This document shows positions 15,893-23,149 of a stretch of 64,000 nucleotides of DNA, one piece after another. Position 1 is the first letter of the stretch; each line of letters starts with the position of its first letter. A program made the position numbers and the translations under genes. Origin of the DNA: Bacteroidota bacterium. Lineage in GTDB: Bacteria; Bacteroidota; Bacteroidia; UKL13-3. The notes beneath the pieces are model-generated. The model was not told the origin of the DNA, ran no database searches, and saw only the letters and a list, made by a program, of their open reading frames with translations. The stretch lies in NCBI GenBank assembly GCA_027487835.1, contig JAIYCU010000020.1, positions 10,970-74,969 on the forward strand. Direction: 5' to 3'.

Positions 15893-18800
15893 TTAACTTT
15901 TCCAGTTAAGTATTTGCCACAAATTATGCATTCCTTGTTTAATAGTATTTACTTCAAATACCACAATGGCTAAAGATTGGTTTGTTTGCTTTAACCTTCC
16001 CCATTTAGGATGACTTTGTACAAAGCCTAAAATATTGCTAAATAATTCAGATTCGTAGTAATGCTTTTTATTTTCTGGAGGGAAATAGGCTATGAGTTGA
16101 CTCTTTTTCAAAATCATTTTTTCAAATCCTAATTGTTTGCCAAGTTCTCTTAACCTAATTAAGTTAACTAAATCATGCACCTGTGTTGGTACATTACCAA
16201 ACCTGTCGTGTAACTGAGCAGTAAACTGTGTTAATTCCTCATCCGTGTGTAAAGAGGCTAAGGCATTATATAAGCTCAATCGCTCCCCAATATTCCGAAC
16301 ATAATCATCTGGTATTAGGGCTTCCAAATCTGTTTCTAAATTGCAATCTACCGATTCTACTTTTTGAACACTTAATTCATCCTTAAACAAATCTGCAAAC
16401 TCATCTTCTTTCAGTTCATGTATCGCTTCATCTAGAATTTTATGATACATTTCAAATCCAATTTCTGCAATAAATCCACTTTGTTCTCCTCCTAATAAAT
16501 TTCCAGCACCTCTGATGTCAAGGTCGCGCATAGCTACATTAAAACCACTACCCAATTCGCTAAACTCTTCAATGGCTTGTAACCTGCGTCTTGCATCATT
16601 GGTTAAGCTAGTCATAGAGGGTACCAATAAATAGCAAAAGGCTTTTGTATTGCTTCTCCCTACACGTCCTCTCATCTGGTGTAAATCACTTAACCCAAAC
16701 ATGTGAGCATTATTTATTATTATGGTATTGGCATTTGAAATATCCAAACCTGCCTCTATAATCGTGGTTGCAACAAGTACATCATATTCTCCTTCAATAA
16801 ACTTAATCATTACATCTTCAAGTTTATCTCCTTCTAATTGCCCATGCGCTACACCCACTTTAATACCTTTACAAATGTTTTCAAGGTGCTTGGCTACTTC
16901 ATAAATATCTTTTACACGATGATGCACAAAGAATACTTGCCCCCCTCTTTCAACTTCATAATTAATGGCATCTGCGATGGTGGTATCATTATAATTATGC
17001 ATTTCTGTGCTTACCGGTTGTCTATTGGCCGGTGGTGTATTAATAACAGACAAATCTCTAGCGCCCATCAAAGAAAAATGCAAGGTTCTTGGTATAGGGG
17101 TTGCAGTTAAGGTTAGGGTATCTACGTTTGTTTTTATACCCTTTAATTTTTCTTTGGCCGCTACTCCAAATTTTTGCTCTTCATCAATTATCAGTAGTCC
17201 TAACTCTTTAAATTTAATTTCTTTACTTAAGATTTTATGAGTGCCAATTACAATATCTAATTTGCCTTCCTGTAATTTTTTCATAACCTCCTTTTGCTCT
17301 GTATTCGTTTTGAACCTATTGATATAATCAATATTACAAGGGAAGTCTTTGAGCCTTTCTTTAAATGTTCTATAATGCTGGTTAGCAAGAATGGTAGTTG
17401 GCACAAGAATGGCAACTTGTTTGTTATCACAAACAGCTTTAAAGGCGGCACGAATAGCAATTTCAGTTTTTCCAAATCCAACATCACCACAAATGAGGCG
17501 GTCCATAGGATGTGGATTTTCCATGTCTTTTTTCACATCAACCGTTGCCTTCACTTGGTCTGGCGTATCCTCATACATAAAAGAAGCTTCTAATTCAACT
17601 TGCATGTAATTATCTGGTGCAAAAGCAAAGCCTTTTTGAGATTTCCTTGTGGCATAAAGTTTAATAAGGTCGCGCGCAATGTCTTTTACTTTTTTCTTGG
17701 TATTATTTTTTAATTTCTCCCACGCATCACTTCCTAATTTATTCATTTTAGGAATGGCACCATCTTTACCAACATACTTAGTTATTTTATGCAAGGAGTT
17801 TATGCTCACATACAATAAATCATTGTCTCTGTATACTAATCTTACCGCTTCTTGCAGCTGTCCGTTAATTTCTATTTTCTCAAGACCTGCAAACTTGCCA
17901 ATGCCATGATCTATATGGGTAACAAAATCACCAGGCCTTAATTCTCGAAGTTCTTTTAGGGTTATCACCTTGCTAGAGGTATAACCACTTTTAAGTTTAC
18001 CTTTATAAAATCTATCAAAAATTTGATGCTCGGTATAAATGGCCAACTTTGTATCTCTATCAATAAAGCCTCCGCTTAAGCCATGGTAAACCGGACTAAA
18101 TTTCACTTCCTTGTCTAGGTCCTCAAAAATGGTATATAAACGTTCAATTTGTCTGCTGCTTTCAGAGAAAATCAAATTTACATAGTCTTGCTTTTGATTC
18201 TCTTTTAGATTTTCTATGAGTAGTTTAAAGTTTTTGTGAAAGAGCGGCTGCGGACTCATATTAAACTCAAATACCGAAGCAGATTTTTTACTAAACCTTG
18301 TTCCAAAACCTATTTGTGTGAAAGGTTCTAGTACTTTTTTTAATTGAGAAACATCCATCCAAGTTTCAGCCACCGAACTAAAACTAATTTCATGCGGACC
18401 ATCATATTTTTTTGGGTCAAAGCTAGCGGCCCGCTCCAAGCCTTTTGAAATCTGGTCAAAAGAAAAGCTATCATCTTTCCACCAGATTAATGTTTCTTTT
18501 GGGAGGTAATCAAAAAAACTTTGCTTTAGGCTTATTTCTTTTTGAACATTTGGAATGATAAAAAAGCGGTCTACTCTTTTAGTACTTAATTGGTCTACTG
18601 GATTAAAAATTCTAATGCCTTCAATAGTATCCCCATTTAATTCAATGCGATAAGGTAAATCATTGCTAAATGAAAAAACATCTATTATACCGCCTCTTAT
18701 ACTAAAGGTACCTGCCTCATAAACAAAGTCGCTTCTTTCAAAATGATGTTCTGTTAAAAATTCTATAAAAAACTCTAAGTCGAATGGGTCACCCTGTTTT

Positions 18801-19240
18801 ATTTCAAATGTATTTTGATTTAAATCTTTTTCGCTCATTACCCACTCGCAAATAGCATCTGCAGTAGTTATTACCCATTCATTCTTACTATAATGTTGGT
18901 TAAGTCTATTTAAAACTTCTGCACGTTCAAGTACCAATTGGTTTTGCAAAGTTTCTGGCTGAAAACTTCTTTTATAGGAAGCCGGAAAATAATTGATGGT
19001 TTTTCCCTCGCACAATTGTTCGGCATCGCCAGCAAAATATCTTGCTTCTTCAATGTCTTGGCAAATTACCAACATTGGCAAGTTCAACTTTTCATAGATA
19101 CTAGCACTCAAAAGGGCAGGGGCAGCGCCTTGCAAACCTTTTATGTGTAGGTGTTTGGCTGTTTTATCCTGAATTGTTTTTAATATGGCTGCCGCTTGCT
19201 CAGCGCTGGTCCAAGCCGACAGAATTTCGGAAAGCTTCAT
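15893..19240 (-). CDS. mfd: Transcription-repair coupling factor
   Basis: 1115 aa; UvrB-homology N-terminal domain, RNAP-interaction domain, DEEQ-box superfamily-2 helicase motifs, TRCF C-terminal domain. Confidence 0.95.
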   Translation of the reverse strand: MKLSEILSAWTSAEQAAAILKTIQDKTAKHLHIKGLQGAAPALLSASIYEKLNLPMLVICQDIEEARYFAGDAEQLCEGKTINYFPASYKRSFQPETLQNQLVLERAEVLNRLNQHYSKNEWVITTADAICEWVMSEKDLNQNTFEIKQGDPFDLEFFIEFLTEHHFERSDFVYEAGTFSIRGGIIDVFSFSNDLPYRIELNGDTIEGIRIFNPVDQLSTKRVDRFFIIPNVQKEISLKQSFFDYLPKETLIWWKDDSFSFDQISKGLERAASFDPKKYDGPHEISFSSVAETWMDVSQLKKVLEPFTQIGFGTRFSKKSASVFEFNMSPQPLFHKNFKLLIENLKENQKQDYVNLIFSESSRQIERLYTIFEDLDKEVKFSPVYHGLSGGFIDRDTKLAIYTEHQIFDRFYKGKLKSGYTSSKVITLKELRELRPGDFVTHIDHGIGKFAGLEKIEINGQLQEAVRLVYRDNDLLYVSINSLHKITKYVGKDGAIPKMNKLGSDAWEKLKNNTKKKVKDIARDLIKLYATRKSQKGFAFAPDNYMQVELEASFMYEDTPDQVKATVDVKKDMENPHPMDRLICGDVGFGKTEIAIRAAFKAVCDNKQVAILVPTTILANQHYRTFKERLKDFPCNIDYINRFKTNTEQKEVMKKLQEGKLDIVIGTHKILSKEIKFKELGLLIIDEEQKFGVAAKEKLKGIKTNVDTLTLTATPIPRTLHFSLMGARDLSVINTPPANRQPVSTEMHNYNDTTIADAINYEVERGGQVFFVHHRVKDIYEVAKHLENICKGIKVGVAHGQLEGDKLEDVMIKFIEGEYDVLVATTIIEAGLDISNANTIIINNAHMFGLSDLHQMRGRVGRSNTKAFCYLLVPSMTSLTNDARRRLQAIEEFSELGSGFNVAMRDLDIRGAGNLLGGEQSGFIAEIGFEMYHKILDEAIHELKEDEFADLFKDELSVQKVESVDCNLETDLEALIPDDYVRNIGERLSLYNALASLHTDEELTQFTAQLHDRFGNVPTQVHDLVNLIRLRELGKQLGFEKMILKKSQLIAYFPPENKKHYYESELFSNILGFVQSHPKWGRLKQTNQSLAIVVFEVNTIKQGMHNLWQILNWKS

Positions 19241-19282
19241 GTGTAATCTTAGTATCGGGTTGCAATATAAAGCCCCGTAGCG

Positions 19283-19537
19283 CTAATTTTGTTCTCTACA
19301 CCTGATTACTTTTATTTCATCGCCATTTGGAATAATTCCAAAGTCATAGCAATACAAACAGGTTTCTCCCGATTCTGATATTTCGAGGTGGGTATGGTAC
19401 TTAAATTTAAATCCCATTTCTTGCAATTTTGTATTTGAAACCTGAATATGTTCCTGCTCATTAAATTTTAAAAAATGCCCTAATATCATTCTGTTCCTTC
19501 TCAAATACTGATTGATTTGTTTCACATTTTGGTTCAA
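19283..19537 (-). CDS. Hypothetical protein (84 aa)
   Basis: ORF only; C-terminal CLYC...C cysteines; upstream flank holds a cryptic zinc-ribbon-like frame and an A22 tract (see findings). Confidence 0.4.
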   Translation of the reverse strand: MNQNVKQINQYLRRNRMILGHFLKFNEQEHIQVSNTKLQEMGFKFKYHTHLEISESGETCLYCYDFGIIPNGDEIKVIRCREQN

Positions 19538-19634
19538 CCCAAAAGCTTTAGAATTGTTGAAACTACTACGGCAATGGTCGTCGCAGAACTTTTTATCACT
19601 TCGACCTAGTAGCGGTTCACCGCAACGTAGGCAG

Positions 19635-19656
19635 TTTTTTTTTTTTTTTTTTTTTT
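19635..19656. repeat. Homopolymeric T22 (A22 on the minus strand) tract
   Basis: 22 consecutive T residues between the yggS-like stop and the 84-aa ORF. Confidence 0.9.
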
Positions 19657-19680
19657 ACTTTTTCATCAAGTAAGTAAAAT

Positions 19681-20340
19681 TTATCTTGAACCAAAAATTG
19701 CGCTGCCAATTCTAACTAAGGTTGCACCCTCCTCAATGGCAACTAAATAATCGCCACTCATGCCCATTGAGATTTCTTTAAAAGTGTCTTGAGCTTCAAA
19801 AAAGTCAGATTTCACCTTGTCAAATAGCATTTTTAAACCCTTAAATTCATTCCGAATTTGAGATGAATCATCGGTATTGCTAGCCATACCCATAAGCCCG
19901 TAAATGGCAATATTTTTCATTTCTTTAAATGACTTATTTTGTAATAGTTCATATAACTCGGCTTGAACCAACCCAAATTTAGTCTCTTCATTCGCAATAT
20001 ATATTTGCAATAAACAGGGGATAATTCGTTGATTTTTTATGCCCTCTTTATTAATAACCTCAAGCAACTTTAAGCTATCTACGCCATGGATCAGGGATAC
20101 AAAATTTGCCATGTATTTAACCTTATTACTTTGTAAATGACCAATCATATGCCATTCAATATCTTTAGGCAATTGTTGATGCTTTTCTACCATTTCTTGC
20201 ACTTTATTTTCTCCAAATATTCTTTGTCCGGCATCATAGGCCTCTTGCAATGCAGGCATAGGCTTGGTTTTGCTAACAGCAATTAATCTTGCATTTAATC
20301 CTATTTCTTGATTTATTTTTTCAATATTTGTAGCAATCAT
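19681..20340 (-). CDS. yggS: PLP-binding protein, YggS/PLPBP family
   Basis: IAVSKTKP with the PLP-binding Lys; alanine-racemase N-terminal-domain fold. Start set at MIATN (20340) rather than the upstream in-frame ATG. Confidence 0.85.
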   Translation of the reverse strand: MIATNIEKINQEIGLNARLIAVSKTKPMPALQEAYDAGQRIFGENKVQEMVEKHQQLPKDIEWHMIGHLQSNKVKYMANFVSLIHGVDSLKLLEVINKEGIKNQRIIPCLLQIYIANEETKFGLVQAELYELLQNKSFKEMKNIAIYGLMGMASNTDDSSQIRNEFKGLKMLFDKVKSDFFEAQDTFKEISMGMSGDYLVAIEEGATLVRIGSAIFGSR

Positions 20341-20740
20341 GAGAGATAATATAATTTTCAAATATCTGTATCTATTTTTGTTTCTGCTAATAATGTCTTG
20401 CAACAATGAAATTGGTTCAGACATTGAAAAACCAAATCCATTTTTTGATAGACAGAAAATGGCAGAAATAATAGCAGATATACAATTGGCAGAATCTGCC
20501 GTGCAAATGAAAAACTATCCTTTTGATTCTATGAATAGAGCCTATGCAGGTTATTATGATTTTGTTTTTGAAAAGCATAACATCGATTCTCAAAGTTTTG
20601 CAGATAACTTTGCCTATTATTTAGCAAATCCTGTGGAGATGGATAGCGTCTATCAAGTAACCATTACAATTTTAAGTACCTTAGAATCAAAATCAAGAGG
20701 AATAATTGTTTTAGATTCAAACAAGATTACAGTTAACTAA
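20339..20740 (+). CDS. Hypothetical lipoprotein
   Basis: Signal KYLYLFLFLLIMSC with lipobox; 133 aa. Confidence 0.55.
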   Translation: MRDNIIFKYLYLFLFLLIMSCNNEIGSDIEKPNPFFDRQKMAEIIADIQLAESAVQMKNYPFDSMNRAYAGYYDFVFEKHNIDSQSFADNFAYYLANPVEMDSVYQVTITILSTLESKSRGIIVLDSNKITVN

Positions 20741-20752
20741 GTTAAAGTTACA

Positions 20753-23149
20753 TTGACGGTTTCAAGAGTTATAGAAAATAAATTGGCTTTTAATCAAATC
20801 ACGGATTTGGTTATTGCCCGCTGCTTATCACCTATGGGTGTTGGATATGCACAAAAAGTAAGATTCATAAATCGCTTCGATTTAATAGAAAAATTGCTAT
20901 TACAAACCAAAGAGTTTAAAAGTGTATTGCAGGAGCGACTCCCTTTTCCAGATCAAAATTATTTAGACATTGGTCCTTGGTTGTACAAAGCCAGAATCGA
21001 AGGGGTTTGGTTATTGGAAGAGGAACTTCATCAAGTGCGGTTAACGGTTCAAACCTTTTTACATATTGCAAAATTCTTGCGCGAGCGAAATGGTTTATAC
21101 CCCAATTTAGAAGCCTTAATGGAAGGGCTTTTAATTAATGATTTAGTAATTCGCAGAATTGATAAAATCCTAGAGCCAGAAGGTAAGCTTAAGGCGAATG
21201 CCTCGCCAGAATTGTCTAAATTATCCCAAAAAATAAACGAAAAGGAGTCAGAAATCAGGAGAAAAACCCAAAAGTTATTTGATAAGTACCAGGATTTGGG
21301 CTACCTCGCTGATAATATTGGTGTGAGCATTAGAGAAGGCAGAATGGTGCTACCTGTTTTGGCAGAGCATAAAAGGCATGTAAACGGCTTTATGCATGAT
21401 GAATCTCAAACGGGTCAAACAGTCTATATTGAGCCAACAGATTGTTTTGATCTTAATAATTTCTTGCGGGAATTACAAATGGCTTACAGAAGAGAGCGTG
21501 AAAGAATCTTGCTTGAAACCACAGACCAATTGCGCCCTGAGATTCCAGAATTAGAGAAAAATCAACTGCGTCTAGGCTTGTTTGATTTTGTTCGTGCAAA
21601 GGCCTTATTAGCCATCGAAATGAAAGCGGATATGCCAATTCTATCAAGGCATCCTGGTATAAATTACTTACAAGCGTATCATCCATTGCTAAAGATGAAT
21701 CATGATAGACAAGGACTAAAAACGGTTCCATTGTCGGTAAGCCTTTCAAAAGATTCGCATATCATGGTTATTTCTGGTCCAAATGCAGGCGGTAAATCTG
21801 TTTGTTTAAAAACCATTGGGCTTTTGCAATTTATGTTGCAATGTGGTTTTTTGATTCCTTGTGATGCCGCAAGCGAGCTTGGTATTTTTAAAGATATTAT
21901 GGTTGATATTGGCGATGAGCAAAGCATCGAAAACGACCTAAGTACTTATAGTTCACACCTGCTGAGCATGAAAAATTTTACAGAGTTTGCAGATGCCAAA
22001 ACATTATTTTTAATTGATGAATTTGGTACTGGAACTGACCCTCAATTTGGTGGACCCTTAGCAGAGGCTATCTTACATCATTTAACTAGAAAGAAAGCAT
22101 TTGGGGTGGTTACAACCCATTTTAGCAACCTTAAGAATTTTGCCAACCATACCCCAGGATTACTAAATGCATGTATGTTGTTCGACCATGAAGCCTTGCA
22201 ACCTTTATATATTTTAGAAACTGGAAAACCAGGCAGTAGCTATGCGTTTGAGCTTGCTGTTAAGTCTGGTTTGAACCAACAAATTATCAACTACGCCAAA
22301 AACAAAGTGGGCGATAAACAAAGGAAAGTAGAAGAGTTATTGGTAGAATTGGAGCGTGAAAAGCAGCATGTTAATGAGTTGCGCATTCGTTTTACAGAGA
22401 AAGAAGAGAAATCTGAAGCTATGCTTTTGAAATACGAAACCTTAACCAATAAGTTTGAGGCTGAGAAAAAGCAATTACTTAAAAAAGCAAAGGAAGAGGC
22501 ATTAGCACTGGTTGCGGAAGCCAATAGTAAAATTGAGGCTACCATTCGAGAAATTAAGCAAGAACAAGCTAGCAGTGAGGTGCAAAGAAAAGCTCGAACC
22601 TTGGTAAAGGATGAGATTCAACAATTGAAAGAAGCTGTTGGCGAGGCTACTGAAGTTATTCAAAGCAAAACGGAAGGGATTTTGAGTTTAGGCAATATTC
22701 AGGTAGGTGATATGGTACGCGTAATCGGACAAGAAACGCCGGTAAAAGTGATAGAATTACAAAAAAACAAAGCAGTTGTTGGAATGGGGGATTTGCGAAG
22801 CACTGTTGCTTTACAAAAACTTGAAAAATTTTCTTCTGACCAAGAGCAAGTTGTAAAACGACTTGCTCCTAAAGGGATTGACTTTAATGCGAAGATGCAG
22901 CACTTTTCTTCGGAGCTTAATGTGATAGGTACGCGCGGTGAAGAGGCTTTGAAACAATTGGATGATTACCTTGATGATGCTTTAATTTTAGGCATCAAAC
23001 AAGTAAGAATTGTGCATGGAAAAGGATATGGTATTTTAAGGAAGCTTGTAAGAAATTCTTTAAAACTTAATAAGCGTGTTGAAACATTTCAAGATGAACA
23101 TGTTGAATTAGGCGGAGATGGGGTTACAATTGTTACCTTAAAGGTATAA
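20753..23149 (+). CDS. mutS2: Endonuclease MutS2 (MutS domains III-V plus C-terminal Smr)
   Basis: Walker A GPNAGGKS, central coiled-coil region, C-terminal Smr domain (VIGTRGEEAL...VRIVHGKG). Confidence 0.92.
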   Translation: MTVSRVIENKLAFNQITDLVIARCLSPMGVGYAQKVRFINRFDLIEKLLLQTKEFKSVLQERLPFPDQNYLDIGPWLYKARIEGVWLLEEELHQVRLTVQTFLHIAKFLRERNGLYPNLEALMEGLLINDLVIRRIDKILEPEGKLKANASPELSKLSQKINEKESEIRRKTQKLFDKYQDLGYLADNIGVSIREGRMVLPVLAEHKRHVNGFMHDESQTGQTVYIEPTDCFDLNNFLRELQMAYRRERERILLETTDQLRPEIPELEKNQLRLGLFDFVRAKALLAIEMKADMPILSRHPGINYLQAYHPLLKMNHDRQGLKTVPLSVSLSKDSHIMVISGPNAGGKSVCLKTIGLLQFMLQCGFLIPCDAASELGIFKDIMVDIGDEQSIENDLSTYSSHLLSMKNFTEFADAKTLFLIDEFGTGTDPQFGGPLAEAILHHLTRKKAFGVVTTHFSNLKNFANHTPGLLNACMLFDHEALQPLYILETGKPGSSYAFELAVKSGLNQQIINYAKNKVGDKQRKVEELLVELEREKQHVNELRIRFTEKEEKSEAMLLKYETLTNKFEAEKKQLLKKAKEEALALVAEANSKIEATIREIKQEQASSEVQRKARTLVKDEIQQLKEAVGEATEVIQSKTEGILSLGNIQVGDMVRVIGQETPVKVIELQKNKAVVGMGDLRSTVALQKLEKFSSDQEQVVKRLAPKGIDFNAKMQHFSSELNVIGTRGEEALKQLDDYLDDALILGIKQVRIVHGKGYGILRKLVRNSLKLNKRVETFQDEHVELGGDGVTIVTLKV

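Follow-up and report, generated by a model that had tools for sequence, protein, structure and literature searches.

A stretch of 64,000 nucleotides from a Bacteroidota bacterium (hereafter the window) contains a long A/T homopolymer beside a reading frame for a small zinc ribbon that has no proper start codon. The question raised by this locus is whether the tract is a genetic device that governs the zinc-ribbon gene or a flaw in the sequence. Three possibilities had been put forward in the original prediction: an error in the length of the homopolymer, a phase-variable switch operating by slippage, and a gene in decay. Table 1 lists the features that bear on the answer, all of which are read on the minus strand.

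Table 1. Coordinates of the tract, the gene that it touches and the neighbouring genes within the window
Feature	Position	Strand	Remark
A22 tract (T22 on the + strand)	19635..19656	-	no other A/T homopolymer in the 64 kb exceeds 10
9-nt span with all six mismatches	19644..19652	-	contigs read TAAGATGCC; only differences in 62,452 compared bases
84-aa ORF, TTG start	19283..19537	-	probably an artefactual truncation; C-terminal 84 codons (two thirds) of the 121-aa gene, same frame
True gene, 121-aa DUF2116-like zinc-ribbon protein (MPKKNCLRCG...REQN)	19283..19648	-	equals P0001 once six bases are restored
Native ATG position	19646..19648	-	AAA in the window
Zinc-ribbon core, Cys6-x2-Cys9-x12-Cys22-x3-Cys26	19571..19633	-	31-member alignment, DUF2116 matches
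yggS (PLP-binding, Ala_racemase_N fold; 219 aa on identical contigs), upstream neighbour	19681..20340	-	
mfd (transcription-repair coupling factor, 1115 aa), downstream neighbour	15893..19240	-	

The homopolymer and its reading frames

The run of 22 T residues is perfect, as had been reported, and it does lie between the stop codon of yggS (19681-19683) and the TTG codon at 19537 that opens an 84-aa ORF. On the minus strand, 24 nt separate the yggS stop from the tract, and NCLRCGEPLLGRSDKKFCDDHCRSSFNN codons stand directly 3' of it. Across the 64 kb, the lengths of A/T runs fall smoothly to one run of 10 and then jump to 22. Since a first-order Markov model of the 64-kb window predicts only about 1e-4 runs of 22 or more, the tract is a real feature of the window and not a product of chance. 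A scan for promoters and terminators around the tract gave no signal exceeding the shuffled background.

The zinc ribbon had been assigned to the +1 frame relative to the 84-aa ORF and credited with 62 open codons. Neither assignment survives: positions 19636 and 19537 are 99 nt or 33 codons apart, which places both in the same frame, and in the minus-strand translation that frame is open for 124 codons (19283-19654). The peptide itself, NCLRCGEPLLGRSDKKFCDDHCRSSFNNSKAFGLNQ, is present with its C-x2-C-x12-C-x3-C spacing, and the frame is indeed closed upstream by a TAA composed of T19657 and the first two A residues of the tract. The arithmetic of tract length is likewise sound in silico, where 21 or 24 A residues join an upstream frame containing TTG codons to the zinc ribbon (…QFLVQDKFYLLDEKVK6-7 joined to NCLRCGE). 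The only starts available to the fused frame are TTG codons, and they overlap the end of yggS.

The segment between the tract and the 84-aa ORF had also been singled out as unusually GC-rich. Its GC content is raised (0.464 at 19538-19634, the mean being 0.359 with an sd of 0.053), but the enrichment is modest, being equalled or exceeded in 2.8% of windows of the same size (97 nt), and the gene as a whole has a GC content of 0.34. The local composition is probably explained by the encoded stretch, which is rich in Cys, Arg, Gly and Asp.

Comparison with same-species contigs and relatives

In a homology search, the best match to the 117-residue frame adjoining the tract was P0001, a protein of 121 aa that matches it at 100% identity and has MPKKNCLRCG as its first residues. 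Five Logan contigs, from the runs SRR16126855, 844, 833, 834 and 877, encode P0001. Contigs of the same clone cover 62,452 of the 64,000 window positions, where they align gap-free at 100.000% identity bar six mismatches. All six fall within the tract, at 19652, 19649, 19647, 19646, 19645 and 19644, where the coding strand has T, G, T, G, C and C in the contigs and A throughout in the window. Thus GT-AAAATAAGATGCCAAAAAAAAA-CTGC in the contigs corresponds to GT-AAAAAAAAAAAAAAAAAAAAAA-CTGC in the window, and both inner segments are 22 nt in length. The ATG and the CC of a Pro codon are among the bases replaced, and the window encodes exactly P0001 once the six bases are put back.

Assemblies from two other studies (JGI 3300032315 and ENA ERZ28593915) both carry AAAATAAGATGCCAAAAAAAAA and encode a one-residue variant of the protein, P0064; outside the tract, these slightly diverged strains differ from the window at 3 further positions over 1459 nt and at 4 over 699 nt, respectively. 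There is no homopolymer at the site in any of the seven contigs of the species (five Logan, JGI and ENA) or in four contigs of close relatives. Nor were variants in tract length found among the contigs, the seven from the species sharing one identical sequence. Exact and degenerate pattern scans for the locus in genome and metagenome contigs gave no matches. Two long Logan contigs from different runs (65,305 and 70,204 bp) both begin at the same point, 1155 nt before the first position of the window, which suggests a repeat or a strain-variable junction at that point; a 209-kb NCBI contig evidently bridges it.

Relatives at 65-66% amino-acid identity (P0003 and P0004) have AAATGAAATGCC and AAAATGAGATGCC at the start site, with ATGCC kept. 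The contigs that encode P0004, from GCA_027487655.1 and GCA_027488905.1, show the full order yggS, 121-aa gene, mfd, and the short contigs of P0003 show the gene followed by mfd. A scan of species-representative Bacteroidota genomes gave at least 572 loci of the family. The best 80 of the 572 were kept, among them loci from Chitinophagaceae, Cyclobacterium, Algoriphagus, Pedobacter and Roseivirga, and 73 of these could be scored. None of the 73 has an A run longer than 9 between -60 and +45 of the start, and in all but one of them an ATG precedes the CxxC motif. Neither the tract nor a shorter version of it is conserved at the same site in the relatives of about 65% identity or in the 73 family loci. 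Going by these relatives and the 73 loci, a long homopolymer does not belong to the gene in any relative. As judged by these sequence comparisons, the non-homopolymer version is the ancestral and conserved state.

The zinc-ribbon gene at the tract

The supposedly cryptic zinc ribbon belongs to an intact, conserved gene, of which it forms the N-terminal domain, and the tract has overwritten the start codon of this gene. The suspicion that the frame is coding was well founded, as 49 homologous proteins were retrieved with E-values down to 3e-75. The absence of a proper start had also been seen correctly, and the tract itself is the reason for it. The idea of a decaying gene is contradicted by the otherwise identical contigs, in which the gene is intact and 100% identical at the protein level.

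The native gene opens with the codons ATG CCA AAA AAA AAC TGC, or M P K K N C. Its ATG lies 32 nt 3' of the yggS stop, and the gene ends 42 nt upstream of mfd. The start sits within an A-rich leader. Bacteroidota generally do without Shine-Dalgarno sequences and favour A-rich leaders, so this start context is an ordinary one. Codons 2-5 (CCA AAA AAA AAC) contain a C-A9-C run (19635-19648; L005:10001-10015) that is identical in the seven contigs of the species and absent in the relatives at about 65% identity, whose proteins begin MPNKTC and MPEKYC. From its ATG onwards the native gene runs as one ORF without interruption, the A9 being read in frame, and nothing indicates that this A9 is used for programmed frameshifting or transcriptional slippage. 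A mini-ORF, ATG AAA AAG TAA, occupies 19657-19668 on the minus strand, directly upstream of the zinc-ribbon gene and in frame with it. Its end lies 6 nt short of the true ATG in the native sequence, and its frame is not kept in a relative at 66% identity (L013).

The 49 homologues of the 117-residue frame range from 111 to 184 aa, most being about 120 aa. Among 31 aligned members, the motif GR.DKKFCDD.CR never varies, nor do Cys22 and Cys26; Cys6 and Cys9 are kept in at least 90%, and a second conserved block, FKY.TH...G..Y.FCYDFGY, lies towards the C-terminus. Of the Pfam families, only DUF2116 (PF09889, described as a 'probable treble clef') gives a consistent signal. For the window protein its score of 19.4-19.8 bits (E about 1e-3) falls below the gathering threshold of 26.8 bits; across the family, PF09889 is found at E <= 0.01 in 23 of the 31 members, with a best value of 1.8e-5, and one homologue (P0011) has a precomputed match to it. 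The arrangement of four cysteines, CxxC...CxxxC, is that of a DUF2116 treble clef, and metal binding is predicted. The window protein shares with DUF2116 proteins the N-terminal CxxC...FCDDxC motif, and some family members are named 'DUF2116 family Zn-ribbon domain-containing protein' by NCBI. Unlike the DUF2116 model, which spans 59 positions, it adds a conserved extension of 85 residues comprising a helix and an alpha/beta region.

The earlier comparison with YacG, TRASH and FCS zinc fingers is apt only loosely, in that the protein has a short four-Cys ribbon with 'FC..xC' in its second half; no significant profile match goes with it. YacG and TRASH are absent from the Pfam families reported at E <= 10 for the window protein, and zf-FCS appears at E = 6.1 for that protein and at E <= 0.01 in just one of the 31 members. 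An AlphaFold2 model built with the family alignment is confident, with a pLDDT of 87.8 overall and of 85-91 over the four-Cys region. In it, a knuckle region at the N-terminus is followed by a helix (residues 24-61) and a small alpha/beta domain. In the PDB, neither a Foldseek search with the model nor a profile search of the sequences gave a significant match, and a literature search on DUF2116 and on the run and assembly accessions found nothing useful. From the alignment and the model, the product is predicted to be a small treble-clef-like zinc ribbon with four cysteines, followed by a long helix and, at the C-terminus, a small alpha/beta domain. The gene itself is ordinary, uncharacterised and DUF2116-like, and it is widespread in Bacteroidota.

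Turning to its neighbours, in the clade of the window the zinc-ribbon gene stands between yggS and mfd, with mutS2 nearby (window 15893-23149). At the distant loci (L017-L096), where family members are 115-127 aa in length, a divergently oriented ssb gene (PF00436, E = 1.4e-32) adjoins the zinc-ribbon gene in 61 of the best 80 of 572 loci, and a PIF1-like helicase is found further upstream in 26 of the same 80. Going by this genomic context, the zinc-ribbon protein is probably linked to DNA metabolism. For yggS, the mechanically called ORF in the window encodes 247 aa from an upstream ATG (19681-20424, minus strand), and the calls on identical contigs begin at 20340 and give 219 aa. The additional 28 codons overlap the region of a divergent DUF4296 gene and are probably untranslated.

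Origin of the tract

The tract is real in the window; on present evidence, it is not a biological feature. It is probably a defect of this one assembled sequence, an artefact of assembly or of the record. The six-base discrepancy, the intact gene in all other contigs and the conservation of its start are observed directly, and an artefactual origin is what we infer from them, the locus being most likely a same-length overwrite of a conserved gene start. In such an overwrite, a block of 9-22 nt over a normal start would come to read A on the coding strand where the DNA of the organism is AAAATAAGATGCCAAAAAAAAA. The ATG and the Pro codon would be removed, and a gene caller would then be left with a truncated product, either 84 aa from the TTG or 68 aa from the next ATG. 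The discrepancy would have arisen during assembly, consensus calling or record handling rather than in the cell. The unchanged length of 22 nt fits a block overwrite and not slippage, because slippage changes length.

The public records point in the same direction. The truncated 68-aa product (MILGHF...REQN) is on record from one NCBI contig only, of 209,215 bp, and this contig also carries the exact Mfd and MutS2 of the window. The 68-aa product came to light through a cluster look-up, position look-ups of the 84-aa and 68-aa products having given no matches. No Logan, JGI or ENA assembly yields it, and for intact P0001 the only records are Logan assemblies. Since the 68-aa product is confined to the NCBI contig that shares Mfd and MutS2, the window most likely comes from that deposited assembly and the defect lies in the public record. 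This observation also carries some weight against an artefact, since a broken version that apparently sits in a publicly deposited assembly must have been made by some process working from real reads. We know of no specific assembler artefact that gives exactly such a pattern. One cause considered is the conversion of N to A, through 2-bit encoding, in a short masked or unresolved block. It would account for the preserved length; against it, the run is T on the + strand of the window.

Natural point mutation was tried as a candidate and rejected, as it calls for six substitutions, all to A, within 9 nt, compared with zero in the other 62,446 compared positions. Alternatively, the A22 allele could be a real mutation private to the assembled strain, a start-loss allele of the zinc-ribbon gene that is null or hypomorphic. 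One conceivable route is that TAAGATGCC was lost from between A4 and A9, which left A13, and that this run then grew by exactly 9. The native A4 and A9 runs do flank the 9-nt block and could promote its deletion, and the 68-aa product of the NCBI contig indicates that the deposited assembly has the broken start. However, this history needs at least two events that restore exactly 22 nt, set against zero other differences in 62,452 bases, and the allele is absent from every other assembly of the same project. The window, moreover, has no second A/T run longer than 10. A private allele is therefore rated as unlikely.

A further alternative is that the tract acts as a switch, with expression toggled by replication slippage to A21 or A24 or by transcriptional or ribosomal slippage. 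A homopolymer of 22 nt is expected to be highly unstable and prone to slippage, and the in silico fusion of a TTG-initiated upstream frame through poly-Lys to the zinc ribbon is what such a switch would use. The contigs speak against it, since none shows a length variant, the close strains and relatives use a conventional ATG without any tract, and the tract is missing from the 73 family loci. The fused frame would also have to begin at a TTG inside or just after yggS, and a conserved single-copy gene beside DNA-repair genes is unlike the surface or restriction genes that are usually phase-variable. A phase-variable tract is consequently unsupported in the seven contigs of the species and the four of close relatives, and a slippage switch is regarded as very improbable. 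In a related reading, part of the natural population of this environmental Bacteroidota lineage would truly carry the A22 allele, as a de novo switch over the start codon that makes expression of the zinc-ribbon protein, with its links to DNA-repair and SSB genes, depend on replication or transcription slippage; we would give it equally little credence. A simple miscall of length, with a true tract of A21 or A24 read through poly-Lys, is the least credible of all, for the frame arithmetic works but the independent contigs have a non-homopolymer of the same 22 nt, with six non-A bases, and a poly-Lys N-terminus occurs in no family member.

With a record artefact as the preferred reading, the outcome is the removal of a false lead and the flagging of a mis-called gene: the record that apparently lies behind the window annotates a conserved 121-aa gene as a 68-aa fragment. 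It also serves as a caution, in that a 22-nt homopolymer with a plausible frameshift story vanishes on comparison with independent assemblies of the same clone. Independently of the tract, the DUF2116-like family, with at least 572 loci in Bacteroidota that usually lie beside ssb, may merit attention.

Phase variation through slipped-strand mispairing at homopolymeric tracts is surveyed in PMC2831843 and PMC1891110. The present locus resembles such systems in having a long mononucleotide run at the 5' end of a coding sequence, where changes in length would switch the frame. It differs from them in that the tract shows neither length polymorphism nor conservation in relatives, has no credible upstream start codon and is absent from otherwise identical contigs. 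A second likeness is to assembly or consensus errors in metagenome-assembled genomes that produce a false loss of a start codon or a truncated gene call. Homopolymer errors usually change the length of a run, whereas here the length is kept and six bases are replaced by A. As in those errors, a single record stands against every independent assembly of the clone, the difference is confined to a few bases and lowers their complexity, and its sole consequence is a truncated gene call.
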